Source: Squalus acanthias
Lineage: Eukaryota
Reading direction: 5' to 3'
Assembly: GCA_030390025.1 (NCBI GenBank)
Contig: CM059431.1
Span: forward strand, 128,900,001-128,964,000
Length of the DNA: 64,000 nt
The stretch's first letter is position 1; each line of letters starts with the position of its first letter. A program made the position numbers and the translations under genes. Positions 54,170 through 64,000 of this stretch are shown here, piece by piece. Under the pieces are notes generated by a model. The model had not been told where the DNA came from and made no database searches. It saw only the letters and a list, made by a program, of their open reading frames with translations.

Positions 54170-56524
54170 TATTCGTTCCAGGGATGTAGGCGTCACTGGC
54201 AAGGCCAGCATTTATTGCCCATCCCTAATTGCCCTTGAGAAGGTGTTGGAGAGCTGTCTACTTGAACCGCTGCAGTCCTTGTGGTGAATGCGCTCCCACA
54301 GAGCTGTTAGGGAGGGAGTTCCAGGATTTTGAAGGAACAGCGATATATTTCCAAGTCAGGATGGTGTGTAACTTGAAGGGGTACTTGGGAGCTGATTTTG
54401 CCAATGGGGACGTGATGGAGGCGGGGCTACTGCTTGTTGGGTTTTAATCCCGCCTCCATCGACTTGTGGCCAATCCACGCTATTTTCCCTTGATTGACCT
54501 TGTTAAGCCCGCCCAGCAGGTTTAGCAGGCCAATTAAGGGAAAGCCGGTGACAGAGAACGTCAGCGTATCAGCTTTGAGAAGCTGTCAAACACTGACATT
54601 CTCTGTTGTTTGGTGAGTCCTTGTATTCAAGACTCACCAAACCTATTTCCTGAGCAGAAATCAGATGGCTGTTGCATCAGAGAATGCAGCAGCCATTCTG
54701 TCATCTCTGCTGTGGAGATGCCGGAGCCTCCAGATCCCCACCGATTGAAGCCTGCAGGAAGAAACAAAGGTAAGGAAGCTTTTTCGAAGACTTTTCACTC
54801 ACCTCACATACTTACCTCTCCACACTTGCACCCATCACTCACCTCCACAGCGGACTTTTCGACCCCTCTCACCCCCGCAGACCCACTGCTCGCCTCGCTG
54901 ATCCTGGCGGGGTTTCCCGATGTCGGGAAGCCCGCACTTGTGTTGGAAAAATGGGGATAATCCTCTTAACTGCCTGTTAACTACCTGTTAACAGGCAGTT
55001 AAGTGGCTGTAATCCCCTTCCCGCCTCGAGGAGACGGGTCCCAGCGTGAGTCAGGGACCCGCCTCCTGGGACGATGACACGAGGTGGGTTGGGGGCGGGT
55101 TTGGTACCCGCTCCAAGTTTCTGCCATTTTCCCGGCAGTCCCGCCTCCATACCCACCTCCCCAGGGCTGGCAAAATCGCCCCCAAAGTGTTCCAATGCGC
55201 CTGCTGCCCTGTCCTTCGAGCTGGTAGAGGTCGCGGGTTTAGGAGGTGCTGTTGAAGAAGCCTTGGCGAGTTGCTGCAGAGCATCTTGTAGATGGTACAC
55301 ACTGCTGCCACGGTGCGCCGATGGTAGAGGGAGTAAATATTTAAGGTGGTGGATGGGGTGCCGACCAAGCGGGCTGCTTTGTCTTGGATAGTGTCTAGCT
55401 TCTCGAGTGTTGTTGGAGCTGCACTCATCCAGGCAAGTGGAGAGTATTCCATCACACTCCTTACTTGTGCCTGGTGGAAAGGCTTTGGGGAGTCAGGAGG
55501 TGAGACACTGACCACAGAATACCCAGCCTCTGACCTGCTCTTATAGCCACAATATTTATGTGGCTGGTCCAGTTAAGTTTCTGGTCAATGGTGACCCCCA
55601 GGATGTTGATGGTAGGGGATTCGGCGATGGTAATGCAGTTGAATGTCAAGGGGCGGTGGTTAGACTCTCTCTTGTTGGAGATAGTTATTGCCTGGCACTT
55701 GTGTGGCACAAAAGTTACTTAGCACTTATCAGCCCAAGCCTGAGTGTTGTCCAGGTCTTGCTGCATGCGGGCATGGACTGCTTCACTATCTGGGGAGTTG
55801 TGAATGGAACTGAACACTGCGCAATCGTCAGCGAACATCCCCACTTCTCACCTTATGATGGAGGAAAGGTCATTGTAAAGCAGCTGAAGATGGTTGGGCC
55901 TAGGACACTGCCCTGAGGAACTCCTGCAGCAGTGTCCTGGGTCTGAGATTATTGACCTCCAACAACCGCAACCATCTTCCTTTATGCTAGGTATGACACC
56001 AGCCAGTGGAGAGTTTTCCCCCTGATTCCCATTGATTTCAATTTTACTGGGGCTCCTTGATGCCACACTCAGTCAAATGCTGCCTTGATGTCAAGGGCAG
56101 TCACTCTCACCTCAACTCTGGAATTCAGCTCTTTTGTCCATGTTTGGACCAAGGCTGTAATGTGGTCTGGAGCCGAGTGGTCCTGTTGGAACCCAAACTG
56201 AGCATCGGTGAGCAGGTTATTGGTGAGTAACTGCTGCTTGATAGCACTCTCGATGACACCTTCCATCACTTTGCTGATGATTGAGAGTAGACTGATGGGG
56301 CGTTAATTGGCCGGATTGGATTTGTCCTGCTTTTTGTTGACAGGACATACCTGGGCAGTTTTCCACATTGTCTTGTAGGTGCCAGTGTTCTAGCTGTACT
56401 GGAACAGTTTGGCTAGAGGCGCGGCCAGTTCTGGAGCTCAAGTCTTCAGCACAACAGCCGGGATGTTGTCGGTGCCCATAGGTTATGCTGTATCCAGTGC
56501 GCTCAGCCATTTCTTGATATCACA
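54170..56524 (-). mobile_element. LINE RT region (family of 44736-47980), host of the provirus; continues at 63849-64000
   Basis: Colinear with 44740-46310; DAQFGFQQDHSAPD, ALDIKAAFD. Confidence 0.88.
54387..55183. mobile_element. Harbinger-type MITE nested in the LINE
   Basis: gggagctgattttgcc...ggcaaaatcgccccc inverted ends; LINE sequence resumes after it. Confidence 0.65.
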
Positions 56525-57318
56525 TGTAAGGGTGTGGGTTGTGATAAGAGTCAGCCTTTCCCCTGACTCAGTGAGCGGTTCGAATCGCTCCCACGCCCCA
56601 GGTTCAAAACTTGGACTTATTTAGGGGTTGTGAATAAAGATGCAGTAGACCACAGGTTCCAATGAAAGAACTATAACTTTTATTAAATTTAAAAGGTAAC
56701 AAACTTAAACACACTTCACACTCAAACAGGTTTGGGGAGCACACGGTTACAGGCAAGGAAAATGACAGTATACAAGAAAAATAAAAACCTTTATCCCTCC
56801 CAAAAAATCCCACTCCTAGCTAGGTTTCGGTTTCAGGAGATCAGGGATAATGCTCACCAGACAGGGGTATTAACAATCCGAAATGCAGCCAGGTAAGTCG
56901 ATGGTGATTCTGGTCATCGAACGTCTTCCTTTACCTTGTGGCTTCTGGGCAGTGCTGCCAGAGACCCCTTGCTTCCAGCGTAGTCGGTCGAGTCGAAAGG
57001 AGAGAGAAACCTTGGGTCCTGCTGCAATTATAGTCATTTTCGCCTCCCCCCCCCACCACAAACTCCTCATGAAAAAAACTGGTTTCGTAATGCAGTGAGT
57101 TTTCAGGTGAGGCCTGTTCATTGTCTTGTTGAAATTTTGTTGGGCTCTGTGTTTTGGGTGGGGCAGTTTTTCCCCAGAGCCTATTCGCCAAATGGTGATG
57201 TTTTGCTGGTCTTTTGAATTCCCAGACCAGGCACGTTTCCTTTACATTTCCAAAGTCTTTATTTTTTTTTTCCTTTCGATATATGTTTTGGGGATCTGCA
57301 AATTTTGGAAATCTTACA
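56525..57318 (-). repeat. 3' LTR (about 794 bp)
   Basis: TGTAAG...CTTACA perfect 6-bp inverted termini; preceded on - by purine-rich gcaggagggac (57319-57329). An alternative boundary at 57431 (aaaggggaa-TG) cannot be excluded. Confidence 0.75.
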
Positions 57319-57607
57319 GTCCCTCCTGCGATACTTCAGTTCACTACAGTATCGTCCTGGGTGGACAAAATTCCTGATCCCCGAAAACCAACCTTCCCCT
57401 GTATTACCTAAACTAAAACCCCAAACATACATTCCCCTTTAAATGTGGTGTTTTAGGTACATACAGGTAAGAAAATCTTTATTTCACAACCAAGCACGGA
57501 GAGGGTCCGACACCCCTGCACTGCTTGGGAAAACACATATCTTTATTACAAAGAACAAAACACAAAAAAAGCAACAATCTTTATTCAGGAACACAGAATA
57601 AAAACAT

Positions 57608-60600
57608 TCAAACAGGTGTATCTCTCTCCACCTCAGCATAATGCTTCCTCCAAGTCCTTTCATTTCGGAACTGTAGTATTCTGCCCTTTCCCTTGCACTG
57701 AGTGCACACCAGGTACAATACTATTCCCAGTTGGCAAGCTACGAGGAGGTGGGAAGCCATTCTGACCCATGAAGGGACCTCTATGTTTTCGAAGATGTCC
57801 CACCAGGGTGGGACTGTGATACCTTGAATCTCTCGCTCTATCTCGTGTGTATTCTGTTCTAAAGTGTAGAAATGTTTTTGAGCGAGCTCTACAGCTTTAA
57901 GTAGGATGGTAAGATGTTCGGGTAGAGGGGGTATTTTATATCCAAAGTAAGTCACATACTTTTGCAGGTTGGTGATGTTTTCTGTTACAGTGAGGTGAAC
58001 AGTGGAGGGTTCGGGAATGGGGACAATCCGTTCCTGGGCCACTTGAACTTCTGCCTCGGGTTTAAAGCAGAAACTGCTGTCACTTACCGGACACCAGAAG
58101 TGTCCATGCTGGTAGTGGGACGCACCTGTGGTGACACAATGGGCCAAAAATTGATCCCGCTGCGCGAGAGTACGCACTGCGTACTCTCGCGTATTCTCTC
58201 TCCAATTGCCGGTTTTCTGCATGCCCTGCGCATGCGCTGAAAACCGGCACTTGGTCTTTGGAAAAGGGGGCGGTTCCTCGGTGCACAGCGTGCGCGCTAC
58301 AGGCTGCGCGCACGCTGTGCACTTAGTGCTTTGGACGCGCAGGTAAGGACGGAAGATTTTAGAAATGGAAAAAGGAGGAGTAAGACCCACTTTTAACAAG
58401 GTAAGTAGTGAATTAAGTATTTTTTTGAATTTTTTTTAACAGGTATATCTTTTTTAGAGACTTTAAAGACAGGTAAGTTTATTTTTATAACTTTTTAAAA
58501 GATTTTAAATGTTTTCAAAAATTTAATTTTTTATTTAAAATGGTTAATTTATTTAACTATACTTATTTTATTAATGTGATGGTTTTTAAAAAAAAATTAA
58601 TTGAGGTTTAGCTGTTATTTTGGGGGTGTGTAAGATTCATAGCTTTCACAGCACGTATGTGAAACTTATGAATGGAAGATGGTGTGCTGCCATTGGCTCT
58701 AACTGAGTCACGTGATCCCACAGCTCGCACGAATTCACTACGCCGGTGGGATACGCAAGCACTGCCCAGCTGATGTCTGGAACATCAAGTTCGTGCGAGC
58801 TGGATCTGAAAAAGCCAACGCGGAGTGAGAGATCGCGCCTGCTCCTTACCCCCGCGGGAACAGAGCGAGATCAATTTCTGAGCCAATATGTCCCACCCCC
58901 TATATATGCGACCTGTGGGGAAACATGGCCGTGTGCCATCACCTCCATGGTACAATTGATAGGTCGTGCGCCAGCAGCTTTAAACCCGCACTGTGGTTTG
59001 GAATAGGCGTTCAAGTGCTGGGGACACAGTATTATGTGTGAACCCCGGCTCCGGCACCCGGATAGGTCATTACCTGTCATGGCGTGCTCCCACTTTATGA
59101 CATAAGGTGGGACCGCTGTAAAACGGATGGGTGCACCCCCTTGAATGACTCCAATGTTCTCCACCCTGTATACCGGTACGGGTCGGGCTGTCCCACTCAT
59201 GACCGGCATTCTCACTACTATCCCCATGATAGTGTGATTTGAACGCCCACAATCTATTGGGACAGGGTAGGCTTCAGAGGCTAGACAAAATTGGCATGGG
59301 CTCAGCAAATTACTAAACGGGTGGAGGGCTGCGAGGTGCTTGTTGCTGATCCAGGAGGGGACTAAACCTTGCTTTAAATCCTCCAGGTTGCTACGGCCCT
59401 CGCCCAGCAACCATGCCCCGTACAGCACACACACCTCATTCTGTGCAGCCTGATCCGATGCTTTCCTATCCTCCCGTATGAGTGCATTTACTGTTTTGGC
59501 ATGCCTTTCCAATTCTGCAATAATTTCCTTTAAATGAACCGTCATAGCTTGGTCCTCATGTCGCTCTGAGCCTACCACTGTGTTCCCATCCTTCAGGATC
59601 TTTCTTAACTTGGTTTTTAAACCATTTATCTGTGTCTGTAATTCCATGTCATCCAGGCTATTTATTACAGAGGACCCTGTACTATAGGCAGTGAAGACAT
59701 CATTCCAGGCTCCCCTTCTTTGTCTACCCGTGCCCATAGGGTTCTCAGGGTGTATTCTGCATAGCTCTACTTTGTCTAATATTGGCAAAATCAAATTCGT
59801 AAAATTTCCTAAACATTTCCTTTAGCAGGGCCTGGTACAGTTGCTCCGTCTCCTTAGGACACCACTCAGGTAAGTATACCTCGGTGAGGTTTAATATTAC
59901 TGAAGCTACTGCATAGTGTACCCCCTGGTATAGTACCTTTTCGGTTGGTACTAGGACTAACCCATTCCCTGGTCCCTTGGTGGTGGTAGGGCACTTTTCT
60001 TCCAGGGTTTTCGGTACCTGGGTCGTGGGTAGGGGCTTTCGGGTGTGTGCCACGAGTTCAGTGGCATTAACTGGGACCAGAATGTGTGGGACCACGCACC
60101 CATGCAGGCTAGAATCCCACCCTGTCCCCTCCCCGGCATCCTGCCATTGGCTGGAGAAGATGATGGATACCCCTGTGGGGCAGGCTTCCTCTGATCCCCA
60201 CATACAAACATAGACTCCCTGTTCCGACTCCCACCACTTATCCCAACAAACACTGACTCCTCCTTGGGTCCCTGTGATTGTCCGGTGGGTGTCGTTCCCT
60301 AATCTTTCCCAGTCGGCTGTATGGTCCCCTGCGTCCCTGCTCAGCTTCCTGAGCCACCACCACCTATTTAGGGGAATTCGTCCCTTACAGGTAAGGCACA
60401 CACGCTTCCCCTCGGTGACACTGACCCTTGTGGCAACGACCTGTATTCTGGGGCATGGGAGGGAGGCCTCCCCGTACGTGAACCCGGGCTGGTTGGAGTA
60501 TTTAGTAGAGTTGGACCCCAGCCACCCTGGCCACCTTCCCTCATGGAAGTAGATGGCGTGCTCCTCCACTCCCCGCTCGCCACCCCCTGCGGTGACGACT

Positions 60601-60704
60601 GGTGCTCTCACTCCTGAGCACCCATAGATGTTGGAGTCCTCCACGTCACCTCGCCTCCCAGCGCTCATTCCTATCAGAGAGAGTAGGAGTATGCCCCCCT
60701 TCAT
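57608..60704 (-). pseudogene. env: env-like glycoprotein (about 780 aa reconstructed): signal peptide, Ig-like domain, RQRR furin site, heptad repeat, Cys-rich ectodomain, TM; one frameshift near 59780 and a MITE insertion
   Basis: MKGGILLLSLIGMSAG; VSVTEGKRVCLTC..W..EQGVYVC; RQRR|GAWNDVFTAYSTGSSVINSLDDMELQTQINGLK; TM MASHLLVACQLGIVLYLVC; removing the MITE restores GGGTY-CVTTG in frame. Confidence 0.85.
58141..58884. mobile_element. Harbinger-type MITE inserted in env
   Basis: TIRs gggccaaaaattgatc and gatcaatttctgagcc; AAT TSD at 58138-58140 and 58885-58887. Confidence 0.92.
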
Positions 60705-60718
60705 ATCGACAATCCCTT

Positions 60719-60745
60719 CTGTAAGGAGACACAAGAGCATATAGC
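60719..60745 (-). promoter_or_regulatory. Putative env splice acceptor
   Basis: Minus strand ctcttgtgtctccttacAG lies 14 nt upstream of the signal-peptide ATG (60704). Confidence 0.6.
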
Positions 60746-61017
60746 CAGGTCCCGAGTAGATTCTCTGGCTTGGGTGAAGCATAGTCGGTTCTTGCGACCT
60801 CGACTCAATACAAAACACTCTTGAAATTATAACATTTTAAAACTACCAACGACCTTACTTAAAATTTAACTAAAAACACCCAAACTTAACAATCTCAAAA
60901 TTTAATAAACAAAAGCTATGTACATTCGCCGCCCGTCTCCGGACGGCTAGCCTAACTCCTGTCAGGACTGCAGCACCCTACTCCCTTTGGTGTGGCCGCC
61001 CTGTCCTGTACCTTTGG

Positions 61018-61806
61018 TCACTTGCAGCCTATGGCTGCTGGCCGGGAACCTCTGTCCTCAGATCGGCCCCTGGCTTGAGGGGCGGCCCTTTTAAATTGGG
61101 GAGCCGGTGACCACGGTTTCTTTGGCTGTGGCGTACGTGGGGACCTTTTAGGGGCTCTGGCTGGTGGGGGTTTAACATGAGCCACTGCCCCCTGTTGTGT
61201 GGTCTGTGAATCTTCCACGGCCACTGGCTGGGGATTTCTATCCTCAGGCTGTACCTCTCCTAAACCTGTTTCAGGGTCAAGTGACTCTTCGCCGCCTGGT
61301 GCTGGTTCAACTCCTGGTTCGGGGGCGGGGCTATCTGGTTCGGGCTTCTCCTCCTCTAAATCCCAGAGGATTGGGGGAATGTCCCAACCGGTGGGTGGGG
61401 GTGGGGTGGCCCCTCCCCTAAGACAAGCCACTGCGCCTGCTTGTGCATTCTGTGAAATCTCGCCTGCTGGAGGTTGCAGATTTCTATTCTGTTTTAGTTT
61501 GGGCAACTCTGCTACCATGGCTTGCAACTGCGGGGTGGTGAATTCCCCCGGGGTTGTTGATCAAACCATCCCTCTGGCTTTGGATAGGGCTTGGGTCAGA
61601 CCTATTATCCTTTCCTCACAGGGCCCATGGTTTAAATCCTCATACTCCCTGCTCCTGGCCACCCTGTAGGCTGCCTTTATGTCTCTAAGCTGCCCTTCTA
61701 GCCCGTCTACTTTCCCCATTAAGCGGACGTTCTCCTCCCGTAAGGCCTGCTCATTTAACCTGGCCTCCTTACGGGAGGTCTCTTCCTGTGTGTGTCTTTC
61801 AAGGGG
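61018..61806 (-). pseudogene. ORF-X: gag-paralogous coiled-coil segment plus Pro/acidic/basic tail, internal TGA at 61561-61563
   Basis: EARLNEQALREENVRL...IKAAYRV...NHGPCEERIIGLTQALSKARGMV* continues in frame into ORF 61018-61527. Confidence 0.7.
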
Positions 61807-61836
61807 TCACAGGTAGGCAGGCTGTGCTGGTTCCAG

Positions 61837-63637
61837 TCAGAAGTCTGGGTTGTATGGGGCTGCTGCTACCTTCCCTGGGCCAGTCAATAGGGACCTCATG
61901 GCGTCCAAAAATGACTCGACTGTGGCGGGAGGGATCCCTGCCTCTGCCTTTTGGGCTGGGGCTGAGGAATTCTTTCCCATGTTATCCTTCCAAGGATTCT
62001 TACACTCCTTCCTCCAGTGACCATCCTTCCCACACCCATAACAGTTAAGCTTTGTGCTGGAAGGGTTATTCCCCTCCTGATGCCACTCCTTCCTACTCTG
62101 GCCGGGTTTTATCTCATGTACTTTCCCTTTTTGTGGGGGCTCTTCCGCCCCTCTCCCGTTCCGGTAGGCCAGGTTCAGCTGTCTGACCACTGCCTCTTCG
62201 GTGCCCCGGGGGTCTTTCGGGTCAAACCAAAGCTCAGCCTGGGTTTTGATCCAAGGCAAGCTGTTTGCCACTAGGCTACGGAGCCAGTGGGCCAGCTCGT
62301 CCCGGTTTATGTGAGCCCTATTAAGATCCCCACCACAAGCACCCCTGTACACGGGCCACAGCCTGTCTGCAAAAGCCTGTGGGGTCTCTCCTGCGAGCTG
62401 CACTGTTTTCTCCACCCGGGAGAAAGGACTTTCCTCATTCATCCCCATTGCCTCTAAAACTTCCTCAGTGTTGGCCGCATACCCATTCTGTCCTCTCTTG
62501 CTCTCAGCAGAGAGAGACTGATATAACCGGCTGTCCAGTGAGAACAGGAGCATTTTTGCCATCTCGGCATCGTCACAGCCGTTAATGCTTGCTGCCTGTT
62601 CTATCTCTATGAAGTGAACTGAGGGGTCCCCTTGTTGGGTGAGTTTACTCAGGTGGCTTACCATAACCCTAAGCTGTTGTGTACCGTGGGGAGCCACGAA
62701 CTGGCTTTGGAGGGGTCCCGCCTCCCCGTTATCAGCGGGTGGGCCAAATCTGTCCTGCCGGGCCGGGCACATCGGCCCCGGTCCCAGCCTCTCTTGCGGG
62801 GTTTTTTTCCACCTCAGCTTCTGCCCCTAACTCCACCCCTTCTTCTTGCCAGACTGCGCTAAAGCTTGGCGCTATGGGTGGTGGTTGTGGGCCCTCCCGC
62901 TCCTCAACCGGGTCGTCCCTTGGCGCTATCTTTGGTGTCTGAACCGTTCTCCCCAGGTTCCCTGTAAAGTCGACCTGGGCTGCACTTGGGCTTATGAGGC
63001 ACACCACGCCTCTTGCCTTCCTTAGAGCAAGGCTGAGACTCTCTATCTGCTTCTGGCAGGGGCCGTGGTCCGCACCCTCAAACCCCTGTGCGCTCATTAC
63101 CTTATAGGCTGCCTGTAAGCCTTTTACTGTCTCCTCCTGCTCTCTTACTTGTTTTGCCAGGCGGGCATTCTTTTCCCGCAACCTCAGCTCATTGTTCTTG
63201 GCCTCAGTGACCTGGCACTGTAAGTAATCCTGTCGGGTCTTGTGTTCCCCCACTAACTGCACCCTTTCCTGGTTTAGTGCCTGCAATGCTAACAGTAACT
63301 TCTCCCCTGCTAGGGCCTTCGTTTGGACTTCCAGGGCCGACTCCCGAATCTCGGCTGCCTGTGCTTCAACGAGTCTGTCCAAAAGTTGAATCTGTTTCTT
63401 GAAGCACATCAGCCAGACTGCCTTTTCTAAGGATTTTTTATGATCCTTCCCTTCTGTCCATTTAGCTGCTGCATCTACCGGGCGCCCAGTTTTTAATAGA
63501 TTAGTGACCCACTTCTTTTCCATATTCACTTTGCTGAATACATAATCTGAAATCCTCTCTTCCATTACAGTTCTCTCTTCTGAATCAGTGTCTACTGCTT
63601 CACAACCCTTTTGCCAAGTCTTTGCCACGGTCGCCAT
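61837..63637 (-). pseudogene. gag: gag (N-terminal coiled coil, capsid-like region, CCHC zinc knuckle), one frameshift near 62750
   Basis: Overlapping ORFs 62732-63637 and 61837-62772; CYGCGKDGHWRKEC = CX2CX4HX4C; located directly after LTR/PBS. Confidence 0.85.
63615..63636 (-). promoter_or_regulatory. Primer-binding site, tRNA-Arg-like
   Basis: TGGCGACCGTGGCA begins 3 nt after the LTR end (...TTACA aaa TGG) and resembles the complement of the vertebrate tRNA-Arg(TCG) 3' end, recalled from memory. Confidence 0.7.
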
Positions 63638-63639
63638 TT

Positions 63640-63848
63640 TGTAAGGGTGTGGGTTGTGATAAGAGTCAGCCTTTCCCCTGACTCAGTGAGCGGTTCGAAT
63701 CGCTCCCACGCCCCAGGTTCAAAACTTGGACTTATTTAGGGGTTGTGAATAAAGATGCAGTAGACAACAGGTTCCGATTAAAGAATTATAACTTTTATTA
63801 AAGTTAAAAGGTAACAAACTTAAACACACTTCACACTTAAACAGGTTG
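63640..63848 (-). repeat. 5' LTR remnant (3'-terminal 209 bp only)
   Basis: Matches 56525-56733 with about 6 substitutions; abuts LINE sequence. Confidence 0.9.
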
Positions 63849-64000
63849 GTTCTCTCACCACCTGCTGCAGGCCCAGACTGGCAGCTATGTCCTTCAGGAC
63901 TCGGCCAGGTCGGTCAGTAGTGTTGCTACCGAGCCAACCTTGGTGATGGACATTGAAGCTCTCCACCCAGAGTAAATTCTGTGCCCTTGCTACCCTCAGT
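63849..64000 (-). mobile_element. LINE APE region (continuation of the host LINE)
   Basis: Colinear with about 47063-47215. Confidence 0.85.

Follow-up and report, generated by a model that had tools for sequence, protein, structure and literature searches.

Proviruses that have lost genes and depend on helpers can outnumber their masters, as do the HERV-H deletion forms, ETn/MusD, IAP I-delta-1, and SFFV with its F-MuLV helper, and most of these classic helper-dependent cases have lost env or all of their genes. Among the retroviruses of fish, walleye dermal sarcoma virus (WDSV) has its pro-pol in frame with gag, past a stop codon, an arrangement also present in the pol-bearing relatives reported here. 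In this study we analyzed a stretch of 64,000 nucleotides from Squalus acanthias (GenBank assembly GCA_030390025.1, contig CM059431.1, positions 128,900,001 to 128,964,000 of the forward strand; hereafter the window). An earlier note on this DNA had described, at positions 56525 to 63848, a provirus-like element on the minus strand that keeps gag, an additional open reading frame (ORF) called ORFX and env, and has no pol. Our results indicate that this element is, with good probability, a decayed copy of a non-autonomous deletion derivative, here called variant A, of an abundant epsilonretrovirus-like endogenous retrovirus (ERV) of the host genome. The structure described earlier proved to be real, and was corrected in part.

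Class I epsilon-like retroviruses have been reported from a chimaera genome (PMC4422223). Lokiretroviruses are a vertebrate group with an F-like envelope protein (Env), some of them carrying an extra coiled-coil (SMC-like) gene (PMC7947760), and foamy virus Env and F proteins have a common core that is able to bear receptor modules at different positions (PMC11468914).

The pol-less element is found in many copies across the genome

Read along the minus strand, the window element consisted of a long terminal repeat (LTR) remnant, a primer-binding-site (PBS)-like sequence, gag with a CCHC knuckle, ORFX of about 0.8 kb, env, a polypurine tract (PPT), and an LTR. This order, already given in the earlier note, was confirmed by a direct repeat, by the order of the ORFs, and by direct reading of the sites. 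The distance from the gag stop codon TGA (61837-61839) to the env ATG (60782) was 1,055 bp, and no Pfam match to protease, reverse transcriptase (RT), RNase H, or integrase (IN) was found in the seven window ORFs or in the three ORFs of L031, a copy with open frames, in agreement with the gap of about 1.1 kb without enzyme motifs that had been noted before.

Genome matches were scored best-first, and the candidate counts from the first look are loose. With a 261-bp probe across the gag-ORFX junction, all 40 scored matches (the best 40 of 931 candidates) carried the same pol-less junction at 95-100% identity and were located on many contigs. The LTR probe gave 1,553 candidates, of which the best 40 were scored. 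The 316-aa env query gave 8,089, and many of the best 126 had frames open for about 808 aa. Ten copies were fetched for detailed comparison, and all of them were colinear with the window element as LTR-gag-ORFX-env-LTR at 91-98% identity and without pol. Since the same architecture recurs in every copy fetched, the pattern is far beyond chance.

Eight of these ten copies had clear and mutually different 4-bp target-site duplications (TSDs; cttg, gttt, gttc, gaag, ccac, acca, gata, and gcct); of the remaining two, one had a truncated 5' LTR and one an ambiguous TSD. The two LTRs within a single copy were 95.4-98.7% identical. Because many copies share one common junction and have different 4-bp target duplications, these results demonstrated repeated integration of the pol-less element. 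The junction was not unique to the window locus, nor was pol present in all relatives, and the earlier view of a non-autonomous member that keeps only structural genes was supported by the common junction, the independent TSDs, and the existence of pol-bearing relatives.

We also compared 261-bp DNA probes over their best 40 matches each. All 40 junction matches reached at least 95% identity and all 40 env matches at least 99%, and with an RT probe from the closest pol-bearing copy 24 of 40 reached at least 94%, the other 16 being at 86-88%. Judging from this comparison, which is not a census, close pol-bearing copies seem to be outnumbered by pol-less ones.

Some individual loci had features of their own. 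A derivative of about 4 kb (L034, C7:69754000-69760000) consisted of LTR-gag-ORFX with env wholly gone and had its own TSD, gaag; its LTR contained an internal tandem duplication of about 80 bp. In C6:46.8-47.2 Mb and C9:126.3-126.5 Mb, gag and RT matches with equal open-frame lengths (506 and 413 aa) recurred at irregular spacings of about 23-156 kb, suggesting provirus copies caught in local tandem or segmental duplications.

In variant A, pol is replaced by a mosaic filler

Pol-bearing relatives with the same LTR, which the earlier note had proposed to look for, were found in the same genome, and their gag and env were also 96-98% identical. An RT-part query from L048 gave 150 of 150 scored matches (the best 150 listed), their open frames reaching 1,420 aa, and among the matches listed, 15 RT matches were located, by eye, 5.06-5.26 kb upstream of env matches. 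Downstream of its own gag, L048 encoded a complete protease and an RT in which the motifs LPQGF and YVDD were present. One full-length copy (L049 plus L030) had the order LTR-gag-pol-env-LTR with pol ORFs of 906 and 513 aa, in which Pfam identified Asp_protease, RVT_1, RT_RNaseH_2, RNase_H, Integrase_H2C2, and rve domains, and the LTR beside it was 97% identical to the window LTR. When aligned to the pol-less reference L031, the full-length copy was 96.2% identical over the LTR and all of gag and 97.6% identical from within the integrase tail, across env, up to the LTR behind it, the second block (L031 3608-7215) beginning within the 513-aa IN ORF. According to this alignment, variant A is the full-length provirus with 3.76 kb of pol swapped for a 369-bp filler.

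The filler begins with a diverged gag end, the TGA stop, and roughly 12 initial codons of pro (LEPAQP...), continues with a gag-like coiled-coil segment that has 63-67% DNA and 43-49% protein identity to the coiled-coil region of gag in all sampled relatives, and then joins the C-terminal tail of integrase in frame. It was common to all ten fetched copies at 94-99% identity. In the window, ORFX part 1 (61492-61836, minus strand) is this filler in place of pol, with 43% identity to gag aa 146-217 (E = 1e-15), and part 2 (61018-61491, minus strand), in frame with part 1, is the proline-rich C-terminal tail of the pol (integrase) ORF. ORFX, which had been taken for an extra ORF, thus reads as a patchwork of pro, gag-like, and IN-tail pieces, that is, apparently a chimeric remnant left where pol was replaced and no additional gene.

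In every form examined, a TGA separated gag from pro-pol (or ORFX) in the same frame and with conserved downstream sequence; for pro-pol this was seen in L042, L045, L047, and L048. Because ORFX follows the gag TGA in the frame of pol, it could presumably be made only by read-through, giving a Gag-X product.

Another pol-deleted form, variant B, has also been amplified. Its gag TGA was followed by a single frame of 380-402 aa in which the N-terminal part of protease (LVDAGAS) was joined to the last part of RNase H, the beginning of integrase, and a proline-rich tail (for example L042 7679-8824, corresponding to C1:151434678-151435823). All 150 scored matches to this remnant (the best 150 of 8,602 candidates) were contiguous, and it was found, by eye, 2.3-2.65 kb upstream of at least 20 env matches. 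It was a diverged relative adjoining one copy that had led to variant B. The delta-pol remnant was also used as a protein query for longer homologues, and none were found.

Env is under clear constraint and its surface part is probably exchanged between copies

Among 11 variant A copies, including the window copy and the reference, gag was free of stops and frameshifts in four and env in two. The pooled pairwise ratio of nonsynonymous to synonymous differences (pN/pS) of env was 0.20 in frame versus 1.24 and 1.57 out of frame. The corresponding values were 0.46 versus 0.69 and 1.13 for gag, and 0.46 versus 0.80 and 1.07 for ORFX, and the non-coding LTR control frames gave 0.62 to 0.96. Env thus showed clear constraint and gag moderate constraint; for ORFX, constraint is unproven. 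In L032, L038, and L039, ORFX had no stop and a sole -1 frameshift near nt 744, a shift by which all the other copies differ from the reference L031; together with L031, these make 4 of the 11 copies.

In three of nine pol-less copies compared (L032, L039, and L040), a different surface-subunit (SU) segment with 77-79% identity (env nt 300-1200 in the L031 frame) was carried on a 98% identical gag, and the transmembrane (TM) part was 92-99% identical. In variant B, the env core was 97-98% identical to that of variant A, and gag and the env tail differed. Recombination among co-replicating relatives would be the natural explanation of the SU mosaics.

For Gag, the Atlas feature neighbors were Retrotrans_gag, Ty3_capsid, and zf-CCHC clusters (0.93-0.95). 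An AlphaFold2 (AF2) model built on an 11-sequence alignment had a mean pLDDT of 41.2, too poor for a fold search, and a homologue search with the capsid-nucleocapsid (CA-NC) part returned a single unnamed match. The CA identity of this part is hinted at by weak CCHC matches and by the Atlas feature neighbors, which alone speak for it.

Env is predicted to have an F-like fold

A full scan of 1.84 billion representative proteins gave 49 Env homologues, and the named ones came from sharks, skate, and frogs. An alignment of 31 sequences showed heptad regions and a common cysteine pattern, and a basic R-x-K/R-R site recurred in many of the covering homologues at the position of the RQRR furin-type cleavage site, which was read directly in the window at 59714-59725 (minus strand, Env aa ~349-352). 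Searching the PDB with the single Env sequence gave nothing meaningful. The alignment profile matched foamy-virus Env (8ozh, E = 7.4e-5 over about 200 positions; 8rm1, 0.0016; 8rm0, 0.0066), which was the sole solved protein family reached by it. Env had no match to Pfam PF00523 at E ≤ 10, none to TLV_coat, foamy Env, or any other Env family of Pfam, and none of 15 homologues scanned matched PF00523 at E ≤ 0.1; one of the 15 had a weak Baculo_F match (E = 0.0011), below the cut-off.

In the AF2 model of Env, residues ~260-330 and 440-670 were confident (pLDDT 77-93). Foldseek comparison of this model with the PDB, a structure search of the kind proposed in the earlier note, placed paramyxo/pneumovirus F proteins on top, with human parainfluenza virus 3 (hPIV3) F first (E = 4.1e-10) and 231 matches at E ≤ 0.001. 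VIA-align superposed the model on Nipah postfusion F with a Z of 12.4 and a root-mean-square deviation of 5.1 over 289 residues, and of its best 50 rows 49 were F proteins and one was a postfusion foamy Env (Z 8.8). The F match covered model residues 271 to ~680, starting before the furin site as F2 does. Among the predicted viral structures of BFVD, rank 1 was unnamed and ranks 2 and 3 were the Env proteins of walleye epidermal hyperplasia virus 1 (WEHV-1, E = 3.8e-14) and WDSV (E = 5.6e-13); lower ranks held mononegavirus-like glycoproteins, baculovirus F, paramyxovirus F, and then feline foamy virus gp130. Env is accordingly predicted to be a furin-cleaved class I fusion protein with a paramyxo/pneumovirus-F-like fold, and the F-like call made earlier held at the level of the modeled fold.

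At the C-terminus, Env had a hydrophobic stretch that was modeled as a helix (755-813). The extra ~270 residues at the N-terminus showed a weak Ig_3 match (E = 0.0065) and low-confidence beta strands, a hint of an Ig-like module in the N-terminal SU. It had also been stated that Env shows no obvious gamma-type signature of CXXC and immunosuppressive domain. The TM part, as read from its sequence, indeed had neither CX6CC nor a CC pair, but the SU part does contain a CXXC (CLIC or CLTC; CLTC in the window).

Env-like segments of 150-250 residues with 34-66% identity were also present in gene models (P0002, P0003, and P0036) from sawshark and horn shark. The host proteins carrying them were a cadherin-related family member 5-like protein, a Niban 1-like protein, and an fbxo15 isoform, and these segments probably reflect gene models that were fused with pieces of a provirus, or pieces that became exons.

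The lineage points to class I, epsilon-like retroviruses

Compared with solved structures, the RT of a pol-bearing relative was nearest to murine leukemia virus (MLV) RT (218 bits, E = 1.5e-63), far from HIV RT, and farther still from Ty3 (141 bits). Its pol had the order protease (PR)-RT-tether-RNase H-IN with a dual RNase H, as in Retroviridae, an orthoretrovirus-like Pol. The same-frame gag/pro-pol stop, the 4-bp TSD, the single CCHC knuckle, the walleye-type Env, and the RT nearest to MLV together point to a class I, epsilon-like retrovirus. A CCHC knuckle in Gag and an in-frame pol after gag, as found here, are not known to be foamy-like.

Parts of the window copy and its decay

The window copy contained a direct repeat of 208 nt with 97% identity (56525-56732 and 63640-63847). 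Alignment to other copies showed that the complete 3' LTR (TGTAAGAT...CCCTTACA, TG...CA) occupies 56525-57318 on the minus strand and has 794 bp. In the ten other copies, when each was aligned to itself, the LTR measured 810-940 bp and ran likewise from TGTAAGAT to CCCTTACA. Of the 5' LTR, only the last ~214 bp (63640-63853, minus strand; the R/U5 end, ...CCCTTACA) remained, recognized from the 97% repeat match, and in other copies the 5' LTR reached ~600-700 bp farther upstream. The extent of the direct repeat was therefore not that of the LTR, which is ~794 bp and not ~208 bp, with the 5' LTR cut down.

By direct reading, the PBS-like site TGGCGACCGTGGCAAAGA was found 3 nt past the LTR (63619-63636, minus strand). 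It recurred behind the 5' LTR in other genomic copies, where AAA and TGGCGACCGTGGCAAGGAC came directly after the LTR. This site was overlapped by the initial ATG of gag (63637-63635), so that no untranslated leader is left between PBS and gag, and the same was seen in other copies. A role of tRNA-Arg as the primer was unsupported. The polypurine tract GCAGGAGGGAC (57319-57329, minus strand), also read directly, abutted the 3' LTR and preceded it in other copies as well.

On the minus strand, the ORFs followed each other as the N-terminal part of gag, gag CA/NC, two ORFX pieces, env SU, and env TM. The gag gene (61837-63637, minus strand) has ~599 codons where unbroken, encoding an N-terminal coiled coil, a CA-like helical part, and one CCHC knuckle. 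In the window it was split into a frame of 316 codons (MATVAKTW..., with the long coiled coil) and one of 329 codons containing the helical middle and the knuckle. The CCHC zinc knuckle of NC, CYGCGKDGHWRKEC, lay at 61996-62046 (minus strand) and matched Pfam zf-CCHC with E = 0.0012 and 19.2 bits, just below the cut-off of 20.8 bits. The two ORFX pieces (81 and 180 codons) were in the same frame as the preceding 329-codon gag frame. The env gene (57608-60782, minus strand) has 808-814 codons where unbroken, covering SU, an F2-like segment, the furin site, an F1-like subunit, and the TM anchor, and its frames in the window had 363 codons (with a signal-like start, MLHPSQ...), 316 codons (RQRR, heptad-like, and Cys-rich), and 275 codons (hydrophobic anchor).

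The window copy is dead: its 5' LTR is cut short, gag and env are frameshifted, ORFX is interrupted by two stops, and env contains a miniature inverted-repeat transposable element (MITE). Alignment to L031 located one +1 frameshift at gag nt ~830 (near window position 62808) and one +1 frameshift at env nt ~1004 (window ~59778), which bore out the earlier count of one frameshift in each gene plus one MITE in env. In-frame TGA codons broke ORFX at 61807-61809 and 61561-61563.

The MITE-like insertion was a non-coding segment of 747 bp (58137-58883) with 29-nt terminal inverted repeats, the arms of which were located at 58133-58161 and 58864-58892. It was missing from all ten other copies and is foreign to the provirus family. 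Contigs of uncertain kind from four public runs all joined 58136 to 58884 across the insertion, and in these runs the depth of the inserted repeat was tens of times that of the provirus (summed, thousands versus tens to hundreds). The insertion is an unrelated, very abundant MITE-like repeat. It was AT-rich, and an opposite-orientation copy was present elsewhere in L039. The same contigs contained MITE-free env and the provirus family, and no splice joint was seen in them.

No TSD was found for the window copy. Its flanks were fragments of a non-LTR retrotransposon ORF2, one from the RT part (55051-56524, minus strand; RVT_1, E = 9.2e-8 for 56069-56302) and one endonuclease-like (63854-64000, minus strand; a weak Exo_endo_phos_2 match, E = 0.087), in the same orientation and from non-contiguous pieces of ORF2. 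Such non-contiguous flanks fit a deletion across the 5' LTR boundary, and the simplest reading is that a later deletion took most of the 5' LTR plus some flank; the TSD would be missing because the 5' LTR was largely deleted.

Weighing of other explanations

A one-off deletion of pol after integration at the window locus would suit the other local damage of this copy, namely its truncated 5' LTR, frameshifts, and MITE. But the same junction and the 369-bp filler were present in all ten copies and in all 40 scored junction matches (the best 40 of 931), on many contigs and with different TSDs, so this explanation has already been refuted and keeps a negligible probability. Multiplication of the pol-less copies through DNA-level (segmental) duplication could account for local clusters, such as the equal-score LTR pair C17:19114571/19206261 and the recurrent matches in C6:46.8-47.2 Mb, yet eight of ten copies had their own 4-bp TSD and unrelated flanks, with LTR pairs at 95.4-98.7% identity; it is very improbable, and both processes are excluded as the main one. 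Much the same small chance is given to host co-option of gag and env, in which the element would be a domesticated locus. NCBI gene models of other elasmobranchs do hold env-like segments in host proteins, but these host-fusion models span fragments only, and the window copy, broken in all three ORFs, belongs to a high-copy repeat with TSDs.

The lineage itself could be that of lokiretroviruses or env-bearing Gypsy-like elements, as the earlier note had supposed. Lokiretrovirus Env is reported to resemble PF00523 F proteins (PMC7947760), an F-type env is present in Ty3/gypsy errantiviruses (PMC13524379), and the Env described here is F-like in fold and has homologues in frogs. However, neither Env nor its 15 scanned homologues matched PF00523, the top named viral structure neighbors were WEHV-1 and WDSV Env, RT scored 218 bits to MLV RT versus 141 to Ty3, and the pol-bearing relatives have a retrovirus-type dual RNase H and a same-frame gag/pol stop; the words shark, Chondrichthyes, and cartilaginous do not occur in the lokiretrovirus paper (PMC7947760). 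A lokiretrovirus or Gypsy origin is therefore unsupported, and we consider it improbable. ORFX might also be a true accessory gene selected for function, for example a Gag-X that recruits or interferes with helper Gag-Pol. It retains the pol frame behind the gag TGA, is open in 4 of 11 copies apart from the -1 shift near nt 744 relative to L031, and shows a gag-like pattern of pN/pS (0.46 in frame versus 0.80 and 1.07). On the other side, it is pieced together from pro, a gag-like segment, and the IN tail and has no Pfam domain, non-coding LTR control frames reach 0.62, and variant B, with a different remnant, was amplified equally well, which together make an accessory function rather unlikely.

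Several observations weigh against the preferred reading of a helper-dependent, epsilonretrovirus-like family. Foamy PR-RT was nearly tied with MLV RT (210 bits, E = 4.4e-61), the best integrase match among solved structures was prototype foamy virus (PFV) integrase (E = 3.5e-31), and the epsilon-like call rests on Env fold neighbors, genome organization, and the PDB similarity of RT and IN. Env matched no Pfam family, PF00523 included, and its model was moderate overall (mean pLDDT 58.6), with SU residues 1-260 unreliable. A pattern made from the PBS complement matched no tRNA gene genome-wide, and ARAGORN found none in the window. Selection on ORFX is unproven, as its pN/pS (0.46) is not set apart from that of one non-coding control frame (0.62). 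The ten detailed copies were picked from LTR, junction, and env matches and are biased towards variant A, and the copy numbers come from best-first lists with loose counts, so that the ratio of pol-less to pol-bearing copies is merely indicative. Mobilization in trans by helper proteins is what we infer from these data.

Discussion

The best explanation of our results is a family of pol-deleted derivatives presumably mobilized by intact relatives. As the comparison of copies showed, the ancestor was LTR-gag-TGA-pro-pol-env-LTR, and ~3.76 kb of its pro-pol gave way to the 369-bp mosaic filler. Template switching between co-packaged RNAs is the most likely route, and the make-up of the filler would fit such switching among related RNAs. 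The derivative has kept the LTRs, PBS, PPT, gag, and env. Transcription would be driven by the LTR, and the pol-less RNA would be packaged by Gag. The element may thus give its own RNA, Gag, and Env, while protease, RT, and integrase would be provided in trans by pol-bearing relatives, their Gag-Pol being supplied in mixed particles and followed by integration with a 4-bp duplication. Template switching could also have generated the SU mosaics.

A more far-reaching proposal sees in the pol-less elements, instead of passive hitch-hikers, an infectious satellite that accompanies an epsilon-like retrovirus and in which Gag-ORFX replaces Gag-Pol structurally and Env bridges the foamy, epsilon, and F groups. 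Such a satellite would spread between germline cells as particles of its own Gag and Env around helper enzymes, and particle spread would explain both the purifying selection on Env and the SU swapping. We regard this proposal as speculative and hold it with clear doubt; if true, Env, with its F-like core and N-terminal receptor module, would connect the Envs of foamy viruses and epsilonretroviruses with the F proteins of mononegaviruses.

Apart from that proposal, a pol-less, env-selected, and SU-swapping family offers a natural system for asking whether ERVs amplify through reinfection or through intracellular retrotransposition. The Env family links three groups, F proteins by fold, epsilonretrovirus Env by predicted structure, and foamy Env by sequence profile. 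These groups have so far been connected mainly via structure, and the triple link is of moderate interest because it bears on the origin of retroviral envelope genes. For the annotation of elasmobranch assemblies, the provirus family explains gene models by the thousand, both 'uncharacterized protein' entries and fusions with host genes. In the literature searched, no pol-less gag-env family was found described from cartilaginous fishes, which is weak evidence of absence.

Among known systems, the walleye epsilonretroviruses WEHV-1 and WDSV provided the best named viral-model matches of the predicted Env structure, and the hosts of the walleye viruses and of this Env family are fishes and amphibians. 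The walleye Envs are longer, with 1,317 and 1,159 aa versus 808-814 here, and their accessory cyclin-like ORFs were not seen in our elements. Paramyxo/pneumovirus F proteins (PDB 8dmj, 1ztm, and 3rki) resemble the prediction for Env residues ~271-680, which includes F2-like strands, the furin site, a long heptad repeat A helix, a beta-rich head, heptad repeat B, and the TM anchor. Sequence identity to F was just 8-13%, however; the N-terminal SU part of ~270 residues is extra here, and the post-cleavage peptide GAWNDVFTAYSTGSS appeared, by eye, to be of lower hydrophobicity than is typical of the fusion peptides of F.

Foamy virus Env gp130/gp48 (PDB 8ozh, 8rm0, and 8rm1) is similar by profile (E = 7.4e-5) and by fold (Z 8.8), but its receptor-binding module is inserted between the subunits (PMC11468914), whereas the extra module here is N-terminal. 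Compared with lokiretroviruses, the present Env has no PF00523 similarity, and the coiled coil of ORFX is a gag paralogue. As in known deleted proviruses, there is an internal deletion, the LTRs and cis signals are kept, and copying would depend on proteins of intact relatives. In contrast to the classic examples, only pol has been lost here, full-length gag and env are open in some copies, and env is under purifying selection. Helper-dependent deleted proviruses as such are known, and a high-copy form that has dropped only pol, with gag and an env under selection retained, is uncommon among them.

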